IMG/VR virus record: IMGVR_UViG_2663763232_000007 | Span: 1 to 11,509 of that record | Direction: 5' to 3' (one strand) | DNA length: 11,509 bases | Source of the DNA: a virus | Lineage: Duplodnaviria; Heunggongvirae; Uroviricota; Caudoviricetes | Shown: one piece after another, positions 47 through 11,509 of the stretch | Position numbering within the stretch: position 1 is the stretch's first letter | How the letters are laid out: each line of letters starts with the position of its first letter | Notes under the pieces: generated by a model | Seen by the model: the letters and a program-made list of their open reading frames with translations, nothing else | Told to the model about the DNA's origin: nothing | The model's database searches: none | Program-made: the position numbers and the translations under genes

Positions 47-556
47 GTGGGTAGGATCACTGATCCTACATTGCGAAGTCAGTTTTTTCAGGAATTAATG
101 AATGGTCTACGCGGTTATGAGACTGATGACGTAACAAAAGTCGAATTAAATCGCAGTACTGATGCTAGTGAGGATGAAGACAAGGAAGAAACTATTGATA
201 CCGGATTTGTTAAGAAAGCCGTCCTTAATGGTGAAGGGGTAAATAGTTCAGCTATATTTTCTCAACTACATGAGAAAGGTTATTATATCGGGCGTATTGC
301 ATGGTCTTCAAAGCCGACAAGTGGAATTGGAGACAGAATCAACGTCGAAGCATTTTTCAAAGACTCAGAAAAATGCTGTGACTTTGCCTATCAAATTAAA
401 GGTATAAACAATCAAAAAGAAGACGGTTTCAATGTAACCATTCGCGCGGCAACGGCACAAGAGAAAAAACATATTAGTGAATTAATTGAGTCCGCCGCTG
501 AAAATGCCTATAATATAATAATAGGATCAGAGGTGAACGAAGATGAAAAAGGTTAA
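47..556 (+). CDS. Hypothetical protein, acidic (169 aa from GTG at 47; 152 aa if the ATG at 98 is used); accessory cargo of unknown function
   Basis: Long ORF in AT-rich DNA. GTG at 47 has no obvious SD but overlaps a TAG at 52..54 that closes an upstream open frame; ATG at 98 is preceded by AGGA. No motif I recognise. Confidence 0.5.
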   Translation: MGRITDPTLRSQFFQELMNGLRGYETDDVTKVELNRSTDASEDEDKEETIDTGFVKKAVLNGEGVNSSAIFSQLHEKGYYIGRIAWSSKPTSGIGDRINVEAFFKDSEKCCDFAYQIKGINNQKEDGFNVTIRAATAQEKKHISELIESAAENAYNIIIGSEVNEDEKG

Positions 557-1226
557 ATGGCTTAAGTTAAACATACGGCTTGAGTTTGAAACAGCCGTTA
601 GACGTCTTTCTCTTGATTCTTTTACAGAGGATAAAGGGAAAGGGTTCATTTTTGATAAAATACGCCATGATTTTGCAAATGGTCGCTTTGTCGAGCGTAT
701 TGTTTATCATGATAAAATATTAAGCTTTGACGGAAGCGAAACTACCGTTGAAAGAATCGAATATCGCACCACAAATTTTAGCGTGGCTTTAGACTCTCTT
801 CCTGTAATGCAGATTACCAACCCACCCAGAACTTTAAAGCCTTTTTCGCAGGCTTTGGTAAAAAATCTTGGCTTAGGTGTTAGTTTGGAAGAAATTGACA
901 TAAACCCTATAGACTGGCTTAATGAAATATCTTCAAGTGTAAATATCAATTTAACACAACTTGATATTTCAAGGGTTAGAGTTTCTGATTACGCCACAGC
1001 TAAAATGCAAATAATTGGCAGCAATGATCTTAGGAAGTATTATAAAGAAGAATTAGAGGGTAAAAAAATAAGAATTGACAGGCTTGTTTGCTCTGTTAAT
1101 TCATTAGAATATTCCGGTAAGCTCAAGATCACCAATAGCGGCCTTGCTTATATTGATGTTAGAAATGAGAATGAGTTTACGAAAATCGTTTTTGATACGT
1201 TAAAAAAAGTCACCCTTCAATCATAG
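543..1226 (+). CDS. Hypothetical protein, 227 aa; accessory cargo of unknown function
   Basis: ATG at 543 preceded by GAGGTGA; overlaps the upstream ORF by 14 nt, suggesting translational coupling. AT-rich; no motif I recognise. Confidence 0.6.
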   Translation: MKKVKWLKLNIRLEFETAVRRLSLDSFTEDKGKGFIFDKIRHDFANGRFVERIVYHDKILSFDGSETTVERIEYRTTNFSVALDSLPVMQITNPPRTLKPFSQALVKNLGLGVSLEEIDINPIDWLNEISSSVNINLTQLDISRVRVSDYATAKMQIIGSNDLRKYYKEELEGKKIRIDRLVCSVNSLEYSGKLKITNSGLAYIDVRNENEFTKIVFDTLKKVTLQS

Positions 1227-1321: not shown

Positions 1322-1555
1322 TTAATGCAGCCAGCTATCGTCCTCCCACACCTTCTGCATAATTTTCATCACTTGTTTTCTTTCTTCGTCCAGTTGCAGT
1401 CCGGTCAGTTCCACACCGTTAGAGCTACCTTTGCGGATACGAATTACCGTTTTGGGATACAGGGGGCGCAGATTGCGGTAAAGCTCGGATTCAAGGGCGT
1501 CCAGGGTAGACTGGCTAATTTTCTGCTCTTTATCGATCATTATTTCAATGCGCAT
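1322..1555 (-). CDS. DinI-like protein (77 aa), equivalent to the DinI-like part of a 186 Tum-type SOS antirepressor module
   Basis: Translation from the internal ATG reads MRIEIMIDKEQ...VWEDDSWLH, matching the length and the MRIE start of E. coli DinI as I recall it. GAGGTG SD 8 nt upstream. The track ORF 1322..1627 extends upstream in a frame overlapping the preceding gene. Confidence 0.7.
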   Translation of the reverse strand: MRIEIMIDKEQKISQSTLDALESELYRNLRPLYPKTVIRIRKGSSNGVELTGLQLDEERKQVMKIMQKVWEDDSWLH

Positions 1556-1565
1556 AAAAGTCACC

Positions 1566-1754
1566 TCAGCTGATGACATCCATTGAGCGGTTGTATTCGT
1601 GGCTTCTGATTTTTGCCATGAGTTCATCAGTCAATTCAGAAACCCACTGCAGAGCCAGCCCCTTCTCTTCATCACTACACTCACTAGCCGCTACAAGCTT
1701 AAGAAAAAAATCAATGCGCTGGAGCTTCAAAGACTCCAAAAAATAGTCCTGCAT
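1566..1754 (-). CDS. Small protein (62 aa), first gene of the LexA-controlled module; possibly the N-terminal partner of a split Tum-like antirepressor
   Basis: ATG start (MQDYFLESLK...) preceded by AGGAGG at 5 nt; stop lies 10 nt upstream of the DinI-like ATG. The track ORF 1566..1856 extends upstream across the promoter region. Confidence 0.5.
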   Translation of the reverse strand: MQDYFLESLKLQRIDFFLKLVAASECSDEEKGLALQWVSELTDELMAKIRSHEYNRSMDVIS

Positions 1755-1795
1755 TTTTCCTCCTATGACACCACAAGCAATACTGTACACATAAC

Positions 1796-1815
1796 CACTG
1801 TTTATATTTACAGTA
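1796..1815 (-). promoter_or_regulatory. LexA operator (SOS box) overlapping a candidate -10 of the promoter for the 1754..1322 module
   Basis: cactgtttatatttacagta = CTGT-N8-ACAG with an AT-rich spacer, close to the consensus taCTGTatatatatACAGta; about 45 nt upstream of the ATG at 1754. On the - strand, TTTACA and TATACT flank it as possible -35/-10. Confidence 0.6.
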
Positions 1816-1907
1816 TATAATAATCTTACTGATGTAAAACGTTTTTTTACGTTCATCAGCCTGATATGCCTGGTATTATTAAGAGCACGAATTGTTAACC
1901 CGCGTAA

Positions 1908-4322
1908 TTAATACAGATCCCGCCACTTATCATCTTCCTGCAAACGCTGGTTCCGATAGAAGATACGCAGGCCTGCTCCTGACGGAATACTGCCGCCGCG
2001 AAGGAGTAAATCGACCTCTTTCTCGCTGCCATCAAATCCTCTGGACTTCAGTTCATAGACGAGCTGCTGTCGTTGATGGTCTGTAATTCGCTGTTTGTAG
2101 TCTCTACGCCGTTTCGGTTTCACCAGGCGTAACCTTGCAGCCAGTTCCCGGCGTTCTTTTTTGTTCATACTGTGCAGGTAATCGTGCAACTCCTTGTCAT
2201 CCATACGGGTGATATCCGTTCTGGTATCCCCATCAGCTGATTTGTCTTTCCCTTGTTGGTACAAATTTTCAGCAAGGGGACAGTTATTGCCACGAGTCCA
2301 AGGGGCGCAAGCGCCCTGGTCGGCTGCCGCCTCCTGAACGTCAACGGCTTTACGAACCATTTTCCACTTCACTGCATGAGTGCAGATCTTGCCCTCTGCA
2401 ATGGGTGACCAGATGCCATAAATACGAATGCCGTGATCGCCATAGGCGGTCGGCTCTTCGTTGATTTCATAAGCGGTTCTGATGAGGTGATATTTACGGG
2501 GAACCAGTACGCCGCCCTGCTTCATGATGTAGGTGGCAAAACAACCAGCATCAGCAGCAGCCAGGATGGCATCAAGGCGCGGGTTATCCAGTACCGGCGC
2601 ACCTGCTTTTTTGTCCCCCTGTTGCCTTGCCGCCTGACCAGCCAGCAATCGCAGTTCACGGTAAGCCTGACGCCCCGGAATGCCAAAGAAGCGGAATTGC
2701 TGAACACGATGCAAAGACGCCCAGGCATTCACGTATTCAGCGTTATCACGCAGAGATTTACCCGTTTCCTTGCTGATCTCGCCAGCCAGACCACGCCCGT
2801 CAATGTTCTTACTGATGTATTTCGCTATGTAGCTTGTCGGCGTTCCTTTGCGCGGGTTAATCAGCTCAGACTTAAAGCGCGGCCCCGTGTTATTGCCCAG
2901 CTCCTCGCGGTCTTCACGGATAGCAAACTTACGCAACAATGCAGTAATGGCTCGGCGGTCTTTTTTGCGCATGAAACACAACAGGTGCCAGTGAACTGTG
3001 CCGTCGTGATGCGGCTCAGCCACCCGCACGCCATACCAGCGCAACCCGGCTTTGTGCATCGCCTTACGAAATGCAGCAAACATACCGACCAGATAATCGC
3101 TGCTTTGTCTTACCGTCGCATTTGTCCAGGTCGGGTTGGGCCTGCCGTTATTTAGCGTGGAATGGAAACGTGACGGACAGGTGATGGTGTAGAAAACGGC
3201 GCAGTCACCGCGCATTTCCGCGATAAGCTCCAGACCTTTAACACAGGCCATCATCTCATTGCGGCGATGCGCAGGGTTGCTGCTGCTGGCGTTTACCACA
3301 TCCTCCATGTCCAGCGTGTCGCCGTCTTCGTTCACCAGTTCATGAGAACGGAAAAACTCCAGCGACTTACGGCGCTGCTCACGTTTATGCAACACGGCTT
3401 CATAGCTGACATAGGGAGATGCTTTTTTGCTGACAAGGCAGACAGCACGCAACTGCTCTTCCCGCCATTCGCAACGCATCTTCCATAATTTCCGATACCA
3501 CCAGTCGGCGCACAACATACGCGCCAGCGAACCCGGAATGAGTTCATAGGGCACGGGTTTACGGCGGTTCCTTTTCCGACGGAGTTGCTCAAACGCAGGC
3601 GGGATGACATCCAGACGCAGGGTTTCTGCTGCCACCTTTTCCCATGTCTTGCGGATTTCTTCTGGCTTAACGTCATCGGTGGCATACAAATCGCCACAAG
3701 CTGCATCAAGGCACATGCTCATATGCGCAGCAACAAGGGTGGACAGGCGTTTCACCTGATCCTGACTCATTTCAGGCAGAATCAGCAGGCCGTCCAGCCC
3801 TTCATGGCTTGCCATAAAGCGAAAAGAAGTGGATAGCTGACTGTCGCGTACATGCTCCAGCCGTTCCAGACATGGCTTAATCGTCTCACGCAAATAGCGG
3901 GAATAAGCCTTTGGCCTGCCAAGGCTGCTGAAGTATTCAATACGTTGCATCAGCGGCTTGCTGATATGGGAGGGCTGGGCGCTGACGTCTGCCAGAATGA
4001 CCATGTCCGGGTTAAAACGCTGCTGCTCATGCGCCAACTTTGCCCGGCTAATGAGCTTATCCTGCTCCATTTCGCGCTGGACAGGATCACGGGATTCATT
4101 AAAGAAATAACGCTCCCAAACCTGATCACTCAGTGCCTCGCGGCGCAGTTGTTCCTGCTCGTTATCGGCAGCGTACAGAGTGATCAGGTTTGAAAGCGCA
4201 GAAACCGGCGCAACTTCCGCCGGGTCCAGATAAGGGTTAATGGCCTTTTTCGGGCTGTTCCATGAGAACGATGCGGCAGCTTCGTTAAAGCCGCAGCAGT
4301 TGTTCATATCGGCATGACTCAT
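1908..4322 (-). CDS. A: Rolling-circle replication initiation endonuclease, P2 gpA / 186 A family (804 aa)
   Basis: Contains VHWHLL (HUH-type metal-binding motif) and YIAKYISK (paired catalytic tyrosines three residues apart), as in P2 gpA-family initiators. ATG start overlaps the dam stop as ATGA. Confidence 0.9.
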
Positions 4323-5176
4323 GCACGTACTCCGTACACGGCAGAACTATCCACGCCACGCGAATAATCAAATCCCACCCAGCAGCGCGGCCCAGAAACA
4401 GCAATGATTTCTGTTGCTGATTTACCCTCGCCAGCTGCCACACCGATGCTGCGTTTTGCCTTGATGTAGTGGTGAGTAAAATTGCGATACAGCGAACGGA
4501 TCAGGGATGTGTCACTGTTAGAAACAATGACCGGATGTCCTTCTGATGACCGATGTTCAAGAACAGATGCCAGGTGATACTGGTCATCTTCAGTGAAGCC
4601 GTCAGTGTGATAGCCGGAAAACGTACCGTCATACGGCGGATCGCAATACACCACATCCCCCGCCTTCAACATCGCCAGCGTTTCATCAAAGCTGGCGCAG
4701 ATAAACGTTGCTCGCTGGGCCTTTTCTGCAAATGCGCGAATTTCTTTTTCAGGGAAATACGGATTTTTATAATTACCGTAGGGAATGTTGAAATGCCCGC
4801 TCTTGTTATAGCGACATAAACCACGGTAACCGTGACGATTGAGATACAGGAAATATACCGCTTTCATGAAATCAGTAATTTCAGTTGAGTAATTAAACTC
4901 CTGCCTTATGTTGTAATAAGCCACCTCCCTGTTTGCGATCTCAAATAAAACTCTGGCGCGAGATATAAACGATTCACAATCAGCGGCAACCTTTTTATAG
5001 AGGTTGATTAAATCAGGATTAATATCCGCAACCAGATAGCTGGGATAATCCGTCTCCATCATCACAGCACAGGAACCCGCGAAAGGTTCAACCAGTCGCG
5101 GGCCAGCAGGAAGATGTTTTTTCAGTTCGGACATTATGGCAGTTTTATTTCCCGCCCATTTCAGGATGGTGCTCAT
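4319..5176 (-). CDS. dam: DNA adenine methyltransferase, Dam/D12 class (N6-adenine)
   Basis: From the internal ATG the protein reads [11 protein letters not shown]..., with [10 protein letters not shown] (SAM-binding motif I-like) and VVYCDPPY (motif IV DPPY). The ATG overlaps the upstream stop as ATGA. The track ORF starts 20 codons earlier at a non-ATG codon. Confidence 0.85.
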
Positions 5177-5400
5177 ACAGCACCTCCGTTGTAATGTTTG
5201 CCTTTCAGCTCTGCGATTTCCTGACAGGTAATGCAAAGCTGCACACCCGGAATGGCACGGCGGCGTGCTGGCGGAATTGGCGCTTCACACTCAATGCAAA
5301 GTACGCGTGACACGCCCGGTGATTTGGCACGGGCTGCACGGATATGGCGCTGGCGTTCTTCTTCAACGCGCTGCTGTACGAGATCCATTGCATCAGCCAT
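5173..5400 (-). CDS. TraR/DksA-family C4 zinc-finger protein (75 aa)
   Basis: CIEC-(17 aa)-CITC spacing typical of the DksA/TraR zinc finger; AGGAG SD 8 nt before the ATG; start overlaps the upstream stop (TAATG). Confidence 0.75.
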   Translation of the reverse strand: MADAMDLVQQRVEEERQRHIRAARAKSPGVSRVLCIECEAPIPPARRRAIPGVQLCITCQEIAELKGKHYNGGAV

Positions 5401-5633
5401 TAGTGGATCTCCTGCGCTTCGTTCTGGATTGCTTCAGCAGTCACGCGCAGCAGTTCTGCCGCTTCCACGTGGTTTAGCTGGCGGGATGAGATATGACACG
5501 CCAGGCTATCAAGGCGAGCAGCCATTGCTTCAGCCCTTGCCCGGCGTTCTTCCAGACGAGCCTCTGTCAGTAAAATATTAAGCCCTGCGTCATCCGGTCC
5601 GGTTTTAGTCGTGAGGGTTTCAATATTACGCAT
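5400..5633 (-). CDS. Hypothetical early-operon protein (77 aa from the ATG; track ORF begins 2 codons earlier at TTG)
   Basis: ATG preceded by AGGAGA at 8 nt; sits in the early operon between the cII-side small ORFs and the zinc-finger gene; Arg/Ala/Glu-rich. No motif recognised. Confidence 0.5.
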   Translation of the reverse strand: MRNIETLTTKTGPDDAGLNILLTEARLEERRARAEAMAARLDSLACHISSRQLNHVEAAELLRVTAEAIQNEAQEIH

Positions 5634-5700
5634 AATCAATTCTCCTGAATTTAGATAAAGGGATGCCCGGCGGGTTTACGCCATTAATTTCATTAGTTGG

Positions 5701-6042
5701 TTAATTCGGCATGGTTAGCCGTCTGGGAAATAAGCTCACCACTGCACGAAAATGATTCATTGCTTTAATCAGCTCCCGCTTTTCGTCAGTGGTCAGCTCA
5801 TTAATGCTGATGCTATGACGTTCAGCTGGAATTTTTGCCATAAAGAATATGGCAGCCAGTGCCCGTTTATTTTGTTCATTATTGATATCCCGTGGATCAC
5901 GCATATCTTTAATAAACCGCTCAAGCTCTGACTCAATATTCAAACCAAAAACTTTCGCCCTTAACTCCGCAATATGATTAAGTCCATTCAGGCGTTCACC
6001 GGGTCTTAATGGAACAGTCGCCGCAGCGCCTTCAATAGCCAT
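5701..6042 (-). CDS. Hypothetical early-operon protein (113 aa)
   Basis: ATG preceded by GGGGGAA; position corresponds to the fil/dhr region of the 186 early operon, but I cannot match the sequence to either. Confidence 0.55.
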   Translation of the reverse strand: MAIEGAAATVPLRPGERLNGLNHIAELRAKVFGLNIESELERFIKDMRDPRDINNEQNKRALAAIFFMAKIPAERHSISINELTTDEKRELIKAMNHFRAVVSLFPRRLTMPN

Positions 6043-6206
6043 TTGTTCCCCCGTTTTTTCGTAGATAGTTCTGCCAGCAATTCATCTTGTGAACGGCACG
6101 GATGCCAGCGTTTACCATCCTCACCCATGATCCAGCCGTGACCGTAGTGCATTGCCGGACTTTGTTTTACCAGCAGCGATGCAAATGATGGTTCTTTCGT
6201 CAGCAT
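6006..6206 (-). CDS. Hypothetical small protein (66 aa from the ATG), immediately downstream of cII
   Basis: ATG preceded by GAGGTG that overlaps the cII stop; its 3' end overlaps the next ORF by 37 nt in another frame, so one of the two starts may be wrong. Confidence 0.4.
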   Translation of the reverse strand: MLTKEPSFASLLVKQSPAMHYGHGWIMGEDGKRWHPCRSQDELLAELSTKKRGNKWLLKALRRLFH

Positions 6207-6213
6207 AAGCACC

Positions 6214-6723
6214 TCACAGCAAACCGAATGAAGCACCGAGGCCAGTTACAGTATCAACTGCACTTGCCATCACAGGATTAACCTGTAAACGGGCCTGCAA
6301 TGAAACAGCAGCTAACGCCATCAGTCGTGTAACAGAGTTAATGCTGCTGATAGCATCACGACGACCTGCACTGGTTTTTACATCGCCAGATACCGCACCT
6401 GCAGCAACACGCCCGATCTCTGCGGTTGCACTCATGACGTAATGTGGCAGTTTCTCTTTTGCCACCTCATTAATCGGTACACATGGCAGGCAGTGAATCT
6501 GTGCCAGAAAACCGTCTACCAGCGTTGAATCTTCCGTCAGATCGGTAAGTAGCCAGATATCTGGCGCATTGAGCTGATGCGGTTGATCTGGGTTGAGTTT
6601 GTTTCGCAGAGTCTGGACATTCATTCCTGCACGTTCTGCCAGCTTCGCCATATTGTGGCGTAGTGCAAAAGCTCTACAGGCTTCATCAAAATGCGGATGT
6701 TTGGAAATCTTGTAATCAAACAT
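6214..6723 (-). CDS. cII: CII-type transcriptional activator of lysogeny (186 CII family, 169 aa)
   Basis: Same length as 186 CII as I recall it, same position after apl, and an N-terminal HTH-like segment ([19 protein letters not shown]). ATG preceded by AAGGGGG. Confidence 0.8.
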
Positions 6724-6755: not shown

Positions 6756-7004
6756 TTAGCCACCAACGATGACATTAAAATTGAAATTGGATTGGCCCAT
6801 GTTTTTCCTGACTTGTTCCTTTTTGTACTCAAGGTAACGTATACATACTCTGTCTTTCGGTTTTTCCTTTTTTTCCAAGAATTTAGCGAGCTTACCATTA
6901 TGAATCATTTGATATACCGAACCGCGAGAGCGGCCTTCCCATTCCGCGAACTCTGCAGGTGTCGCCATCACTTTTGGTACACGAATTGAAATGTCGTTGC
7001 TCAT
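6756..7004 (-). CDS. apl: Apl/Cox-family excisionase and lytic-promoter repressor (82 aa)
   Basis: First gene of the - strand early operon, divergent from cI; small basic protein with an HTH-like segment (ATPAEFAEWEGRSRGSVYQMIHNGKL); ATG start. Confidence 0.7.
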   Translation of the reverse strand: MSNDISIRVPKVMATPAEFAEWEGRSRGSVYQMIHNGKLAKFLEKKEKPKDRVCIRYLEYKKEQVRKNMGQSNFNFNVIVGG

Positions 7005-7123
7005 AGTGCAGTATCTCTCGATTAAGGTTTTGTTTATGTCGTTTTATCTTGTTTTATTAGATTCAATATTTGATACATCGAGATACTACGATCCAATATT
7101 TGATACGTCAATAGGATTAAGAA
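7005..7123. promoter_or_regulatory. Lysis/lysogeny switch region between apl and cI, carrying the early lytic and repressor promoters and operator repeats
   Basis: 119-bp AT-rich spacer between divergent apl and cI. Candidate lytic promoter on the - strand: -35 TTGACG (complement of 7106..7111), 17-nt spacer, -10 TAGTAT (complement of 7083..7088). I could not pin the + strand repressor promoter. Confidence 0.5.
7064..7107. repeat. Two direct copies of CAATATTTGATAC spaced 30 bp apart; candidate Apl or CI operator sites
   Basis: Copies at 7064..7076 and 7094..7106 read directly; the 30-bp spacing is about three helical turns; the second copy abuts the candidate -35. Confidence 0.45.
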
Positions 7124-7756
7124 ATGATACAGGTAAAAGCTGGCGAGAATACAGGGGGAAGAGAGGCTATCCATAGACTAATGGCAGCCTATGATTTCAA
7201 GTCCAGACAGCAACTTTGCGATCACTTAGGCGCATCAAAAAGCACTATGGCAAACAGATACTTAAGAGATAGCTTTCCCGCAGAGTGGGTGATTCAGTGC
7301 GCCTTGGAAACAGGAGTTTCTTTACTGTGGCTAACCACCGGACAAGGCGAGCCAGGTTCAAAAATTGACCCTAAAAAAAATATCAATTCTGTGAACTCCA
7401 GCAGGGTTAAACCTCTTTCTGAGCTTGTATCTCCTGAAATTGACAAGGCAACTCTCAACGGTGGTTTATTGGTCGATGCTGGAAAAGCAATCATTGATAG
7501 CAGCATACTCCCCTCAGACTCAAGCAACCTGCTGCTGGTGAGTACTTCTGGTGATTCTTATTTAATAGATCGCAACCAAACACCACCAGTAAATGGTACG
7601 TGGTTAGTGGACATCGACGGGATAAAAAGCATTGTAAAATTGACACGACTCCCGGGAAACAGATTAGTAGTGCATCAGGATGATTCATCGTTTGAGTGCG
7701 AACTGGATGACATTGAGGTAATAGGTCGCGCACTGAAAATTATTAAGAGCCTTTGA
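7124..7756 (+). CDS. cI: CI-type immunity repressor (210 aa from ATG 7124; 191 aa if the ATG at 7181 is used)
   Basis: N-terminal HTH ending in LLWLTTGQGEP, plus a C-terminal domain; divergent from apl; stop is 1 nt before the int ATG (TGAtATG). AGGA lies 7 nt before ATG 7124. 186 CI is about 192 aa by my recollection, so the start is uncertain. Confidence 0.75.
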   Translation: MIQVKAGENTGGREAIHRLMAAYDFKSRQQLCDHLGASKSTMANRYLRDSFPAEWVIQCALETGVSLLWLTTGQGEPGSKIDPKKNINSVNSSRVKPLSELVSPEIDKATLNGGLLVDAGKAIIDSSILPSDSSNLLLVSTSGDSYLIDRNQTPPVNGTWLVDIDGIKSIVKLTRLPGNRLVVHQDDSSFECELDDIEVIGRALKIIKSL

Positions 7757-7757
7757 T

Positions 7758-8783
7758 ATGACCATCAGAAAACAGCCGAACGGAAAGTGGTTATGTGAAT
7801 GCTACCCAAACGGAAGAGATGGCAAACGCGTACGCAAACAATTTGCGACGAAAGGCGAAGCCATTGCGTTTGAGAATTTCACCATGGATGAGGTAAACAA
7901 GAAACCTTGGCTGGGAGAAAAGGAAGATCGGCGACAACTGTCAGAAGTGATTGAGCAATGGTATTCCCTGTACGGTCAGACACTCGCTGACCCTAAGCGA
8001 TTAATGGCTAAGTTAAAAATCATTTGTAATGGACTTGGCGATCCCATCGCTTCTGAATTGACAGCAGGTGATTTCACAAAGTACCGGGAAGCCAGATTAA
8101 AAGGTGAGGTCAAAAACGAAGATGGCGTGCTCATGTCACCGGTTAAGCCCAGAACGGTGAACCTTGAACAGCGTAACCTATCCTCAGTTTTTGGCACACT
8201 GAAAAAGCTGGGGCATTGGTCTGCACCCAACCCCCTCGCCGGTCTGCCAACTTTCAAAATTGCAGAAGGTGAACTGGCGTTCCTTGCTGCTGATGAAATC
8301 AAACGCCTGCTTGACGCATGTGCTGAATCTCAAAGTCCCAGTCTGCTAATGATTGCCAAGATTTGCCTGGCTACCGGGGCAAGATGGAGCGAAGCCGAAA
8401 ACCTGCAAGGTAACCAGATATCAAAGTATCGAATTACCTATACCAAAACAAAAGGAAAGAAAAACCGAACTGTTCCTATTTCTCAGGAACTGTATGAAGA
8501 ATTACCCAAAAACAGAGGAAAGTTATTCACACCATGCCGAAAGGCTTTTGAGCGTGCGGTAAAACGAGCTGGAATTGAACTACCTGAAGGTCAATGTACC
8601 CACGTTCTGCGCCACACTTTCGCCAGTCACTTTATGATGAACGGCGGAAACATTTTGGTATTGAGGGATATTTTAGGACACGCTGATATTAAAATGACCA
8701 TGATTTATGCCCATTTTGCACCGGATCATCTGGAAGATGCCGTTACCAAAAATCCACTTCATAACCTCAACTGGCATCGCTAA
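7758..8783 (+). CDS. int: Tyrosine integrase, P2/186 family (341 aa)
   Basis: C-terminal catalytic region HVLRHTFASHF...LGHADIKMTMIYAHF (H-x-x-R and catalytic Tyr); size and position after cI match P2/186 Int; reads into the att site. Confidence 0.9.
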   Translation: MTIRKQPNGKWLCECYPNGRDGKRVRKQFATKGEAIAFENFTMDEVNKKPWLGEKEDRRQLSEVIEQWYSLYGQTLADPKRLMAKLKIICNGLGDPIASELTAGDFTKYREARLKGEVKNEDGVLMSPVKPRTVNLEQRNLSSVFGTLKKLGHWSAPNPLAGLPTFKIAEGELAFLAADEIKRLLDACAESQSPSLLMIAKICLATGARWSEAENLQGNQISKYRITYTKTKGKKNRTVPISQELYEELPKNRGKLFTPCRKAFERAVKRAGIELPEGQCTHVLRHTFASHFMMNGGNILVLRDILGHADIKMTMIYAHFAPDHLEDAVTKNPLHNLNWHR

Positions 8784-9078: not shown

Positions 9079-9128
9079 TAGGCCCATTGATAGGCCCAAC
9101 GAAAAGCTCTATTGTTTTCGTTGGGCCT
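9079..9128 (+). promoter_or_regulatory. Direct repeat TAGGCCCA x2 overlapping a perfect 14-bp stem / 9-nt loop hairpin in the intA upstream region
   Basis: TAGGCCCA at 9079..9086 and 9091..9098; stem aggcccaacgaaaa (9092..9105) pairs with ttttcgttgggcct (9115..9128); ends 20 nt before the intA ATG; no T tract follows. Confidence 0.35.
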
Positions 9129-9147
9129 AAACGCATGGAGACTCCCC

Positions 9148-10389
9148 ATGGCAAGAAAAACCAAGCCGTTAACCGATACGGAAATCAAAGCCGCCAAACC
9201 TAAAGATGCCGATTACCAGCTATATGATGGTGACGGGCTTACTCTGTTAATCAAGTCCAGTGGTAGTAAGCTCTGGCAATTCCGTTACTATCGACCTCTG
9301 ACAAAACAGCGAACCAAGCAAAGCTTCGGAGCCTACCCTGCTGTCTCCCTTTCTGATGCGCGTAAACTCAGAGCTGAATCTCGAGTTTTATTGGCGAAAG
9401 ACATTGATCCTCAGGAACATCAGAAAGAGCAGGTTAGAAATTCTCAAGAGGCTAAAACCAACACTTTCCTGTTAGTTGCCGAGCGTTGGTGGAATGTGAA
9501 GAAAGCCAGCGTAACAGAGGACTATGCCGATGATATCTGGCGCTCGCTTGAGAGAGATGTTTTCCCAGCAATCGGTGATATCAGTGTCACCGAGATTAAG
9601 GCTCATACTCTGGTTAAAGCAGTGCAGCCGGTTCAGGCCAGAGGTGCATTAGAGACTGTTCGCCGCCTTTGTCAGCGTATTAACGAAGTCATGATTTATG
9701 CTCAGAACACAGGCCTAATTGATGCTGTTCCCAGCGTTAACATCGGGAAAGCATTCGAGAAACCGCAGAAGAAAAACATGCCTAGTATCCGCCCGGATCA
9801 ACTTCCACAATTAATGCAGACTATGCGCACGGCAAGTATCAGCCTGTCCACACGATGCCTGTTCATGTGGCAACTTCTAACCATCACCCGCCCTGCCGAA
9901 GCTGCTGAGGCTCGATGGGATGAGATCGATTTCAATGCTAGCGAATGGAAAATTCCTGCAGCTCGAATGAAGATGAACCGGGACCATACGGTTCCACTAT
10001 CTGATGGGGCTCTTGCTATTCTGGAAATGATGAAGCCTCTCAGTGGTGGCCGAGAATTTATCTTTCCTAGCCGTATCAAGCCCAACCAACCAATGAATAG
10101 CCAAACAGTGAATGCAGCACTCAAGCGTGCTGGCTTAGGAGGTGTACTTGTTTCACACGGCTTGCGTTCTATCGCCAGTACGGCACTCAATGAGGAAGGA
10201 TTTCCACCTGATGTCATTGAAGCAGCGCTTGCTCATGTAGACAAAAATGAGGTGCGTCGCGCTTATAACCGCAGTGATTATCTTGAGCAACGTCGTCCGA
10301 TGATGCAATGGTGGGCTGATTTTGTAAAAGCAGCAGATAGCGGCAGTATCGTTAATAGTGGGGTTAGGGGAATACGGCTTGTGGGATGA
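9148..10389 (+). CDS. intA: Tyrosine integrase of the CP4-57 (IntA/SlpA, ssrA-targeting) type, 413 aa
   Basis: From ATG 9148 (GGAGA SD) the protein begins MARKTKPLTDTEIKAAKPKDADYQLYDGDGLTLLIK, matching CP4-57 IntA as I recall it; C-terminal HGLRS...RRAYNRSDY catalytic region. The track ORF starts 12 codons earlier at TTG. Confidence 0.85.
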   Translation: MARKTKPLTDTEIKAAKPKDADYQLYDGDGLTLLIKSSGSKLWQFRYYRPLTKQRTKQSFGAYPAVSLSDARKLRAESRVLLAKDIDPQEHQKEQVRNSQEAKTNTFLLVAERWWNVKKASVTEDYADDIWRSLERDVFPAIGDISVTEIKAHTLVKAVQPVQARGALETVRRLCQRINEVMIYAQNTGLIDAVPSVNIGKAFEKPQKKNMPSIRPDQLPQLMQTMRTASISLSTRCLFMWQLLTITRPAEAAEARWDEIDFNASEWKIPAARMKMNRDHTVPLSDGALAILEMMKPLSGGREFIFPSRIKPNQPMNSQTVNAALKRAGLGGVLVSHGLRSIASTALNEEGFPPDVIEAALAHVDKNEVRRAYNRSDYLEQRRPMMQWWADFVKAADSGSIVNSGVRGIRLVG

Positions 10390-10447: not shown

Positions 10448-11326
10448 TTATCCTGTGACTTTCTTTTTTCTAGCAACTGTATTATCTAAAGCCAATTTGA
10501 TACTTTCAATATTTCTTGACCAGTTTTTAATAATGGTATCTTCCAAAGCATCTTGGCTCATTGTTGCGATACGATATTTTTTACTTTCATTATTAATGTC
10601 AAAATTTGACTCTTTAATAAAGTCCCACAAAGGATCAATGAGAGCATTTACCGCAGCTGCTTTACTTTTCCACCCACCTTCAGGAACAGATTCATTGATC
10701 AAATAAACAAGTTTATCTTGAATTACTCGATATACTTCCGCTTTACTGCTCCCACCTTGTTTTCCGGCTTTAGCTCTAACATGGGATAATTTTTTTTGAG
10801 CACATACAGAAACATGAAACCATGACATACCAATACATCTATCAAATAATTCAGAAGATTTAATGAATGCTTTAATAGCAACACACTCATTCTCTGACAT
10901 AACTGATTTTCCCCATTGATAAGACATCGAGGCAAAAAATAGATGTGATTTAAACACATCATTAATTAAAAAAGGATCCTGAATAAGATGAGAAAATGTT
11001 CCCCTGAAAATACGTGACTTTAACTCTTTCCAGCATTCCTGAACTGGATCATATAATTCAGCATATTCCTCTATTAATTGACCCACTCTGTCACCAGTAC
11101 AATATTTATACTCTTCATGAGATGGAGCACTATACAAAACCACACGTGTTCCTACCTTATCAGAATTCCAGAACTGATCTCGCATTTCGCTTAGTTCCTT
11201 CAGTATCGCAGGATAACTTTCGCTGAGCATATCAATGTATATGTCCCAATCACATTCGACCATCTGCCCAGAAAGACAAACCGATTTTTGACTAATTTCT
11301 TCGCAAAACTCAATCGCTGTCAACAT
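10448..11326 (-). CDS. Hypothetical protein (292 aa from the ATG), AT-rich orphan cargo gene next to intA
   Basis: Long ORF in roughly one-third G+C DNA, convergent with intA; ATG at 11326 (track ORF begins 6 codons earlier at TTG). No motif I recognise. Confidence 0.55.
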   Translation of the reverse strand: MLTAIEFCEEISQKSVCLSGQMVECDWDIYIDMLSESYPAILKELSEMRDQFWNSDKVGTRVVLYSAPSHEEYKYCTGDRVGQLIEEYAELYDPVQECWKELKSRIFRGTFSHLIQDPFLINDVFKSHLFFASMSYQWGKSVMSENECVAIKAFIKSSELFDRCIGMSWFHVSVCAQKKLSHVRAKAGKQGGSSKAEVYRVIQDKLVYLINESVPEGGWKSKAAAVNALIDPLWDFIKESNFDINNESKKYRIATMSQDALEDTIIKNWSRNIESIKLALDNTVARKKKVTG

Positions 11327-11509
11327 AAAAACACCAAATATCAATTAGTTAAGTGTTGTAAAAAATGTATTTTTGGTACGCGGATTTTTTGCATTAATGC
11401 TTGCCGCTAATCTTTCTACAACCAAAATGAACTAACGAGAGGCAATCAAGTGATCTTGACCCTCCATCTCCGAACAGCTTTTGTATCTTAAGTTAACGAT
11501 GTCCGCTGC

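Follow-up and report, generated by a model that had tools for sequence, protein, structure and literature searches.

The window, that is, the whole 11,509-nt stretch of viral DNA that was analysed, contains the early (replication) operon of a Fels-2/RE-2010-type (186/Fels-2-type) P2-like prophage. This operon is already annotated in related phages and includes apl, cII, fil, a DUF5347 gene, a DUF2732 gene, a gene for a TraR-like zinc finger, dam and A. No tRNA was found at the prophage end within the window. On the minus strand the four distal genes follow in the order DUF2732 (5639..5400), zinc finger (5400..5173), dam (5176..4319) and A (4322..1908). Our analysis concerns these four genes and two elements located within A:

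5400..5639, minus strand: DUF2732 gene, 79 aa, homologue of P2 Orf80 / 186 CP80 (PF10809, E 3.6e-29; phrog_128)
5173..5400, minus strand: TraR/DksA-type C4 zinc-finger protein, 75 aa, orthologue of P2 Orf82 and 186 CP81 (PF01258, phrog_54)
4319..5176, minus strand: predicted orphan D12-class N6-adenine DNA methyltransferase (Dam), 285 aa (PF02086, E. coli Dam structures)
1908..4322, minus strand: gene A, rolling-circle replication initiator, 804 aa (PF05840, E 2.7e-127)
4205..4223, minus strand: hairpin CCGGCG-N7-CGCCGG followed by TTTCTGCGCTTTC, at +100..+118 of A, about the position of the 186 terminator tM1
2280..2317, minus strand: probable origin (nick region) inside A, identified by aligning it locally with the nick regions annotated for the P2 and 186 origins (…GGCAATAACTGT)

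The original prediction presented the association of dam and the zinc finger with A as noteworthy, but it is a standard and widely annotated module. The nucleotide sequence of the segment is 95-97% identical to RE-2010, Cartapus and many Klebsiella phages, where it is annotated alike, and about a quarter of the complete E. coli genomes (1245 of 5426) contain the arrangement. The closest reference phages, Salmonella phage RE-2010 (Felsduovirus, gp08-gp11) and Escherichia phage Cartapus (gp40-gp43), share 95% nucleotide identity with it over about 5.1 kb; their four genes (for a DUF2732 protein, a DksA-like zinc finger, a DNA adenine methylase and gpA) are arranged alike and overlap by the same 1, 4 and 4 nt. 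Within the segment there are point differences only; beyond it, both the adjoining immunity region and the cargo that follows A are different. The arrangement as first stated therefore adds nothing new, and its value lies in its context. Besides the gene identities and overlaps, what we observe directly is the conservation of the layout and an association between dam and GATC content.

Products of the distal early genes

The zinc-finger protein matches PF01258 (E 3e-11, 43.5 bits, cut-off 24.9), phrog_54 'DksA-like zinc-finger protein' (E 1.6e-30) and the structures of YbiI (7e-11) and TraR (2e-9), which confirms its proposed assignment to the TraR/DksA family. It is 68% identical to 186 CP81, 46% to P2 Orf82 and 39% to TraR, and in an alignment with these three proteins C35, C38, C56 and C59 are invariant. 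D3, D6, PIPxARR and KHY are also conserved. The four-Cys finger, the N-terminal D3/D6 acidic tip, PIPxARR, KHY and a length of about 73-75 aa are shared with F-plasmid TraR / lambda Orf73; apart from the 39% identity, TraR differs at A8 of the DxxDxA tip, which is V in the phage protein. P2 Orf82 likewise lacks A8. It was shown by experiment to bind E. coli RNA polymerase, to regulate rrn and amino-acid promoters and to complement a dksA-null strain, and with the same kind of DxxDxA deviation it still binds RNA polymerase with lower activity, the authors attributing the weaker activity to the A8 deviation (PMC9239242). The suggestion that the finger may act on host RNA polymerase is thus well supported by the experiments on its P2 orthologue, and by analogy the protein encoded here may bind RNA polymerase too.

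The dam product matches PF02086 over the full length of the profile (positions 1-253 of 253; E 1e-76, 258.5 bits, cut-off 22) and the E. coli Dam structures (E 2e-73), being 47.5% identical to E. coli Dam, so its identity as a Dam methylase is well founded. Homology and the annotated relatives place its start at ATG 5176, while the extension proposed by the ORF lister goes to TTG 5236. The catalytic motif IV, DPPY, is present at residues 179-182 and the ADIN aspartate (equivalent to D54) is kept. In the AdoMet-binding motif I, FAGSC (F32-A-G34-S-C36) stands in place of FxGxG, so that F and the first G are retained and the last G is replaced by C. Seven residues of EcoDam are known to read the GATC site: K9, Y119, N120, L122, R124, P134 and Y138 (PMC4417163). 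Six of them (K9, Y119, L122, R124, P134, Y138) are identical in the phage enzyme and the seventh, N120, is replaced by R. These residues suggest that the enzyme is specific for the adenine of GATC, with indirect support from the lack of GATC depletion in dam-carrying P2-like genomes (see below). The N120 to R replacement and the FAGSC motif count against this picture, as does the fact that prophages also encode alpha-class adenine methylases without sequence specificity (PMC5778455).

E. coli Dam (2G1P, 4GOL), T4 Dam, P1 Dmt and the phage enzyme described here all belong to the D12 alpha-class fold family. Like the latter, the T4 and P1 enzymes are orphan phage enzymes without a partner nuclease. 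In addition to the N120 and motif I replacements, the phage Dam differs from EcoDam by a C-terminal tail of 20 residues, and this tail encodes the ribosome-binding site of A. Literature searches turned up no study that characterises this P2-like Dam directly. A type II restriction-modification system including dam was considered and rejected: no cognate restriction endonuclease gene is located beside dam, its neighbours being the TraR-like finger gene and A, and the best PADLOC model for the protein is 'orphan methyltransferase'.

The A product was correctly predicted to be a rolling-circle initiator, as follows from its PF05840 match. Aligned with the A proteins of P2 and 186, it shows no change in the HUH-type blocks EPHHDGT.HWH and YIAKYISKN, and the start of the gene is identical to that annotated in RE-2010 and Cartapus. 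The hairpin near its beginning resembles phage 186 in position, since in 186 a hairpin or terminator is located some 100 nt from the start of A (tM1, annotated at +86..+113). It is kept in nearly all relatives, a different hairpin sequence being found instead in three loci (L036, L037, L041). Its folding energy is no better than that of shuffled sequences (z = -0.41), the U-tract is missing in many relatives and a consensus terminator scan made no call, which makes its assignment as a tM1-like terminator uncertain.

Overlapping junctions and translation of dam with A

All three overlaps proposed to join the zinc finger, dam and A were found at the expected positions. The DUF2732/zinc-finger junction is TAATG (minus strand, 5402..5398), in which the DUF2732 stop codon TAA (5402..5400) shares 1 nt with the ATG of the zinc-finger gene. 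The dam ATG overlaps the zinc-finger TGA in ATGA at 5176..5173, and the A ATG overlaps the dam TGA in ATGA at 4322..4319. Each of the three start codons has its own Shine-Dalgarno sequence located in the preceding gene: AGGAG (5413..5409) for the zinc finger, GGAGG (5187..5183) for dam and GGAG (4333..4330, within dam) for A. In phage operons genes most often meet in overlaps of 1 or 4 nt, so the pattern by itself is unremarkable.

Conservation of the junctions was assessed across 80 viral loci. The 1-nt overlap between DUF2732 and the zinc finger is kept in 75 of 75 related loci, and P2 and 186 have the same DUF2732 gene with the same overlap. ATGA between the zinc finger and dam is present in 51 of 65 loci, most of the others having an extra gene inserted between the two. 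The overlap seen here between dam and A is retained in 65 of 78 relatives, where the gene preceding A, whichever it is, overlaps its start codon; in the remaining 13 of 78 A starts without any overlap. The early lytic operon of phage 186 (CP80-CP81-CP82-CP83-CP84-A) shows the same kind of 4-nt overlap chain ending in A, and, according to the 186 GenBank record, A appears to be translated only when translation of orf84 runs to its end.

By analogy with 186, co-translation of dam with A, as originally proposed, is plausible, and A translation may depend on translation of dam. A separate Shine-Dalgarno sequence precedes each gene, so the coupling might not be strictly required. The overlaps could instead reflect genome compaction only, with dam, the zinc finger and A translated independently and dam a dispensable passenger whose presence leaves A expression unaffected. 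The good Shine-Dalgarno sequence in front of every gene fits such independence; moreover, in relatives that lack a cargo gene A begins 19-25 nt past the zinc-finger stop codon with its own GGAG, and the 186 genes located between the zinc finger and A are annotated as 'not essential'. However, the 186 record ties A translation to translation through the end of orf84 and annotates a terminator near the beginning of A. In addition, those 65 of 78 loci retain an overlap of 4 or 1 nt with A whatever gene lies upstream, and the first 10-20 codons of A vary together with the upstream cassette. We therefore consider compaction alone rather unlikely as an explanation of this layout.

Exchangeable slot in front of A and GATC content

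Comparison of the relatives reveals a cargo position, given over to DNA-modification enzymes, between the zinc finger and A. It can contain Dam, a C5 methylase, a DpdA-like transglycosylase (phrog_887), PAPS-reductase-like proteins, an exonuclease, or nothing. In 186 it is occupied by an exonuclease, a DUF5405 protein and a PAPS-reductase-like protein in place of Dam. In P2 (orf80-orf81-orf82-orf83-A) the zinc-finger orthologue Orf82 has the same position just before A in the operon, dam is absent and Orf83 (DUF5405) occupies the slot, overlapping A by 11 nt. The interval is thus an exchangeable slot, an observation added by the present analysis.

The original prediction called for counting GATC sites, and the count proved informative, as dam-carrying P2-like phages are not depleted in GATC while dam-less ones are strongly depleted. 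In whole genomes the observed/expected ratio is 0.87 in RE-2010, 1.14 in Kp4861-1 and 1.24 in Kp4860-2, all of which carry dam. In the dam-less genomes it is about 0.19-0.20 for P2, 0.12 for 186 (just 14 GATC sites in the genome), 0.21 for PSP3, 0.38 for Kp4884-2 and 0.54 for P88. Dam-less phages such as P2 and 186 have thus purged GATC five- to eight-fold, while the P2-like phages with dam have a normal GATC content. Among 73 species-level prophage loci the median ratio is 1.02 with dam (n=29) vs 0.645 without it (n=44; p = 5e-6, with phylogeny only crudely corrected). P2-type viral contigs, retrieved by a scan with P2 A, were left out of these statistics because only 97-100% identical copies were returned. 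Of the 16 palindromic 4-mers, GATC shows by far the strongest difference between dam-carrying and dam-less loci, and the difference persists after collapsing the loci to A-protein clusters (p = 0.003, itself a crude phylogeny correction). Dam carriage therefore tracks GATC content, which goes beyond the existing annotation. Selection against GATC and incomplete methylation of phage DNA have both been described before (Deschavanne & Radman 1991; McClelland 1984; both cited in PMC5014478), and we found no report of a dam/GATC dichotomy in P2-like phages in the literature.

Close relatives behave differently: among IMG/VR loci with A at least 78% identical, those without dam next to A have 3.2 GATC per kb vs 3.5 in those with dam, i.e., there is no difference, and the association emerges only between more distant lineages. 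Part of it could be due to common ancestry, or to a dam gene elsewhere in unsampled parts of the dam-less genomes. No alternative methylase was seen in the slot of the dam-less loci that are not GATC-depleted: in one of them (L181) dam is interrupted by an IS element, and in others the finger gene is located directly before A. The window itself has 39 GATC sites (observed/expected 0.75) and no GATC enrichment, its lone 3-site cluster, inside A, matching chance.

Taken with the junctions, these data raise the possibility that the slot is a translationally linked, exchangeable DNA-modification site of P2-like phages and that dam in this position frees its lineage from the strong anti-GATC selection seen in P2, 186 and PSP3. 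We consider this wider proposal about as likely as not. If it is true, Peduoviridae constitute a natural experiment with two alternative solutions, purging GATC or bringing a methylase, and temperate phages with rolling-circle replication would pay a heavy price for unmethylated GATC in Dam+ hosts. The contrast between dam-carrying and dam-less phages provides cheap, testable evolutionary evidence for Dam acting on phage GATC sites, and P2 or 186 compared with RE-2010 or Fels-2 makes a tractable system for finding out what selects against GATC in enterobacterial phages.

Possible roles of the phage Dam

The explanation that we favour, and consider likely as a whole, is the following. The segment would be the middle part of a CI-repressed early lytic operon that is transcribed from pR on induction or infection, with its four distal genes (DUF2732, zinc finger, dam and A) translated as a linked train. 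The zinc finger may bind host RNA polymerase at its secondary channel and reprogramme initiation, as was shown for its P2 orthologue. The orphan, presumably GATC-specific N6-adenine methylase would be produced in step with A, so that the GATC sites of the rolling-circle progeny could be methylated faster than by the limited host Dam. Such methylation would lift a penalty, the nature of which we infer, on unmethylated GATC in Dam+/MutH+ enterobacteria, and would also serve against GATC-reading nucleases. With the penalty lifted, the lineage could keep a normal GATC density, the solution of P2 and 186 being to purge GATC instead. As for the proposal that the phage Dam protects progeny DNA, the dam/GATC pattern supports the view that Dam works on the GATC sites of the phage and relieves it of a liability, but the pattern does not distinguish between restriction, MutH and other GATC-sensing processes.

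A different selective agent is invoked if Dam serves mainly for anti-restriction during host switching, with full GATC methylation of the virion DNA allowing it to survive MboI/DpnII-type or other GATC-sensitive systems, and not for protection from MutH. Such a role overlaps with the favoured explanation, the selective agent being the sole difference between them. A C5-cytosine methylase, DpdA-like transglycosylases (phrog_887) and PAPS-reductase-domain proteins in the slot of the relatives are what would be expected of a cargo site for modifying phage DNA. The hosts seen (E. coli, Salmonella, Klebsiella), however, have their own Dam. A type II system that cleaves GATC cannot be combined with a Dam+ genome unless it is methyl-insensitive, which makes the restriction threat within the native host range uncertain. 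The deep GATC purging in dam-less P2 and 186 also points to a pervasive pressure within Dam+ hosts. Although reviews place phage Dam homologues among passive anti-restriction strategies (PMC12707154; bioRxiv 10.1101/2020.06.22.160242), we find it doubtful that this is the main role here.

The original prediction also allowed Dam to time replication and packaging. A regulatory role could consist in methylation-controlled packaging, for which phage P1 provides a precedent as Dam methylation is required at its pac (PMC12707154), in methylation-sensitive promoters or in control of ori firing. One GATC (7093..7090) is indeed located in the spacer of the pR-like promoter, directly upstream of the -10 hexamer and within an operator-like direct repeat. 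However, there is no GATC in the ori-like sequence 2317..2280, the nearest sites being at 2385 and 2435. GATC sites are evenly spread in RE-2010, where six GATC triplets within 120 bp were found vs about seven expected by chance (an estimate), so their clustering is no more than chance. Moreover, P2-like phages package from cos and not from pac (cos is annotated in P2, 186 and PSP3), and P2, 186 and PSP3 run the same life cycle with no dam and almost no GATC. Timing of replication and packaging by Dam is thus unsupported, and a regulatory role of any of these kinds appears improbable.

Least probable of all, in our view to the point of being hardly credible, is that dam is a lysogenic-conversion gene altering the methylome or gene expression of the host from the prophage state. 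In Salmonella host Dam affects the expression of prophage and virulence genes (PMC7380047), and Dam over-expression has strong cellular effects, triggering of retron-Sen2 among them (bioRxiv 10.1101/2020.06.22.160242). But GATC is already methylated by the host, other prophage methylases are silent in lysogens (PMC5778455), and dam lies inside a repressed early lytic operon. A promoter search ahead of dam on its strand revealed no sigma-70-like site, in keeping with lytic-only expression. Dam is probably made only on induction, alongside A, and this timing is relevant to Dam-sensing defences such as retron-Sen2.

Organisation of the right arm and of the finger, dam and A genes

ORF listing and Pfam/PHROG scans identify the window as the right arm of a P2/186-like prophage (Peduoviridae). 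As in phage 186, an early lytic operon faces the lysogenic operon.

Genes of the right arm
7758..8783, plus strand, int
7124..7756, plus strand, cI
7004..6756, minus strand, apl/cox-like
6723..6214, minus strand, cII
6236..6006, minus strand, fil
6042..5701, minus strand, DUF5347
5639..5400, minus strand, DUF2732
5400..5173, minus strand, TraR/DksA zinc finger
5176..4319, minus strand, D12-class Dam
4322..1908, minus strand, A (replication initiator)
1856..1322, minus strand, small ORF, then DinI/Tum-like gene

The original prediction that the zinc finger gene, dam and A are joined by overlapping stop and start codons is confirmed by the sequence (TAATG at 5402..5398, ATGA at 5176..5173 and 4322..4319), and the Shine-Dalgarno sequences AGGAG (5413..5409), GGAGG (5187..5183) and GGAG (4333..4330) lie within the upstream genes. 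Homology and annotated relatives place the dam start at ATG 5176 rather than at TTG 5236 of the mechanical ORF list. A megablast search with a 5.2-kb query matched 72 phage records (55 of them across the full query length); among them, at 95-97% identity, are Salmonella phage RE-2010, Escherichia phage Cartapus and many phages of Klebsiella. In both RE-2010 and Cartapus the annotation shows these four genes, with overlaps of again 1, 4 and 4 nt. A 1.45-kb core is present in 1245 of 5426 complete E. coli genomes, where RefSeq labels its products 'DNA adenine methylase', 'DUF2732', 'TraR/DksA family transcriptional regulator' and 'replication endonuclease'. This is a known and very common module.

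The gene identities proposed originally are largely right, and the functional reading attached to them is reasonable. Besides PF01258, the zinc finger has matches to the YbiI and TraR structures. It is 68% identical to 186 CP81, 46% to P2 Orf82 and 39% to F TraR (the TraR sequence used is supported by the PDB alignment at residues 25-71). The alignment shows no change at D3, D6, the four cysteines or the PIPxARR and KHY blocks, while A8 of DxxDxA is replaced by V. P2 Orf82 complements a dksA-null strain, binds E. coli RNA polymerase and regulates initiation, its lower activity being ascribed to the missing A8 (Gopalkrishnan et al., 2022, PMC9239242). The suggested action of the finger on host RNA polymerase is therefore well grounded by orthology.

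Dam covers the whole PF02086 profile (E 1e-76) and also hits structures of E. coli Dam (E 2e-73), with 47.5% identity to EcoDam over 257 aligned residues. GATC is read in EcoDam by R124, Y119, L122/P134, N120 and K9/Y138 (PMC4417163). DPPY and the equivalents of K9, Y119, L122, R124, P134 and Y138 are kept; N120 is replaced by R and motif I reads FAGSC. Among PADLOC models 'orphan methyltransferase' fits best, and no nuclease gene lies next to dam. GATC specificity can thus be strongly inferred for this enzyme, although prophages do include non-specific alpha-class adenine methylases. A role in lysogenic conversion is unlikely, since no promoter-like site was found upstream of dam on its strand. 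As over-produced Dam is a known trigger of retron-Sen2, carrying dam could be harmful to the phage in some hosts.

GATC content and the presence of dam

The GATC count proposed in the original prediction revealed no enrichment in the window (39 sites, observed/expected 0.75), and the ori-like sequence at 2317..2280 contains no GATC. The idea that Dam serves regulation or packaging finds little support, as there is no ori or cos-type clustering of GATC and P2-like phages are cos phages. Whole genomes, in turn, differ sharply.

GATC sites in whole phage genomes (number; observed/expected)
RE-2010, dam present: 116; 0.87
Kp4861-1, dam present: 165; 1.14
Kp4860-2, dam present: 167; 1.24
P2, no dam: 25; 0.19
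186, no dam: 14; 0.12
PSP3, no dam: 25; 0.21
Kp4884-2, no dam: 52; 0.38
P88, no dam: 75; 0.54
Vibrio 919TP, no dam: 95; 0.75

We also compared 73 prophage loci of different Enterobacterales species over A and 10 kb of late genes, grouping them by whether a Dam homologue precedes A; these are partial loci, and dam may lie elsewhere in the genome. Median observed/expected GATC was 1.02 with Dam before A (n = 29) and 0.645 without (n = 44; Mann-Whitney p = 4.7e-6), many of the latter falling at 0.1-0.5. Among the 16 palindromic tetranucleotides only GATC differs to such an extent. The difference holds after collapsing to A-protein clusters at 75% identity, a crude correction for kinship (15 versus 13 clusters, medians 1.14 and 0.65, p = 0.003). 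In loci L168-L247 (A plus 10 kb downstream), TCGA is lower in dam carriers (median observed/expected 0.62 versus 0.86, p = 1e-4) and GGCC slightly higher (0.95 versus 0.83, p = 0.008), possibly a lineage or composition effect.

No GATC depletion was seen in the window's close relatives without dam. One of these, L181, has the gene freshly disrupted by an IS element, in keeping with recent loss. IS3-like ORFs (8534..9956 of L181) lie directly upstream of the truncated dam remnant.

The contrast fits the classical picture for enterobacteriophages, in which GATC is counter-selected through Dam/MutH and fast-replicating phage DNA is under-methylated (McClelland, 1984; Deschavanne and Radman, 1991, as cited in PMC5014478). 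Our literature search found no published account of the dichotomy in P2-like phages. Together with the modification slot described below, it is a modest new comparative observation of a known principle.

An exchangeable slot in front of A

The interval between the finger and A differs among relatives.

Content of the slot (L-numbers denote relatives' loci)
Dam alone: as in the window
DUF3850/ASCH and Dam: DUF3850/ASCH in L005 and 11 others
Dam and PAPS-reductase-domain protein (186 CP84-like): PAPS reductase in L031, L034, L067, L070, L076, L080
Dam and DpdA-like 'queuine tRNA-ribosyltransferase' (phrog_887, E 1e-92 to 1e-96): DpdA-like protein in L036-L041, L045, L075, L083
Dam and C5-cytosine methylase (PF00145): C5 methylase in L063
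RNase_T-type exonuclease and Dam: exonuclease in L044
IS1-like ORFs between finger and dam: L052, 2245..2971
Nothing: some relatives

Given these varied occupants and the first 10-20 codons of A, which change with the cassette, the slot behaves as exchangeable cargo space in which DNA-modification enzymes are enriched, most of its genes being of the DNA-modification or DNA-processing kind. Insertion sequences have entered it too, in L052 and L181.

In the best-supported reading, induction would lead to transcription of the operon from pR, the TraR-like protein would reprogram host RNA polymerase, and Dam, produced in step with A, would methylate GATC on rolling-circle progeny, removing a liability that dam-less relatives avoid by purging GATC. 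The liability may be MutH/mismatch repair, GATC-reading restriction or something else. The DNA-modification cargo of the slot favours a general anti-nuclease role. That the hosts are Dam+ and that purging in P2 and 186 goes so deep favours an intracellular pressure.

Coupling of A to the gene before it has a precedent in 186, which has the same train of overlaps (CP80, CP81, CP82, CP83, CP84, A). According to its GenBank record, 'translation to end of orf84 appears necessary for translation of A protein'; the record also places tM1, the 'expected terminator for lytic transcripts in absence of translation of A gene', 86-113 nt into A. We surveyed 80 loci from IMG/VR in which A is 78-99% identical. 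DUF2732 and the finger overlap by 1 nt in 75/75 loci, and finger and dam by ATGA in 51/65. The start of A is overlapped by the preceding gene, whichever it is, in 65 of 78 loci (ATGA 37, GTGA 20, TTGA 1, TAATG 7); the exceptions mostly have the finger directly before A, with a 19-25-nt spacer. By precedent and architecture, translational coupling of dam and A is plausible.

A hairpin, CCGGCG-N7-CGCCGG followed by TTTCTGCGCTTTC, is located at +100..+118 of A (window 4223..4205, minus strand), close to the position of tM1 in 186. It is kept in nearly all relatives, as are its four synonymous third-position G's, and unrelated sequence replacing it in three loci is still hairpin-forming. Its folding energy is no better than that of shuffles (z = -0.41), and the U-tract is not conserved, so any tM1-like role is tentative.

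Switch region, probable SOS control and flanking genes

The pR/pL switch region contains a direct repeat, GTATCAAATATTG(G/A)ATC, at 7106..7090 and 7076..7060 (minus strand), 30 bp apart, whose copies are probably operator sites. The sole GATC of the region (7093..7090) falls within the first copy, in the promoter spacer immediately 5' of the predicted -10 TAGTAT.

At 1798..1813, in front of the small ORF and DinI/Tum-like gene, lies a perfect LexA-box-like palindrome, CTGTTTATATTTACAG, of which chance would give 0.08 copies. As the SOS-controlled p95-tum of 186 has the same arrangement, the prophage is probably SOS-inducible via an antirepressor.

Beyond these genes and A, on the opposite strand, two overlapping ORFs (47..556 and 543..1226, plus strand) occupy the old/tin position of P2. 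The match of the first to PADLOC Hp2 (E 1.5e-114) is confined to the C-terminal 166 of 359 positions, which means that this gene is cut by the window start; the second matches Hp3 at full length (E 2e-157). They belong to PHROGs 6531 and 5850 (no assigned function), have no Pfam match and are likely a candidate anti-phage cargo cassette.

A tRNA search of the whole window found no gene, which argues that the attachment site here does not consist of a complete tRNA. A 298-aa ORF at 10448..11344 (minus strand) has no PADLOC match. Just beyond int lies a second, P4-type integrase-like ORF (425 aa, 9112..10389, plus strand), which suggests tandem integrated elements.
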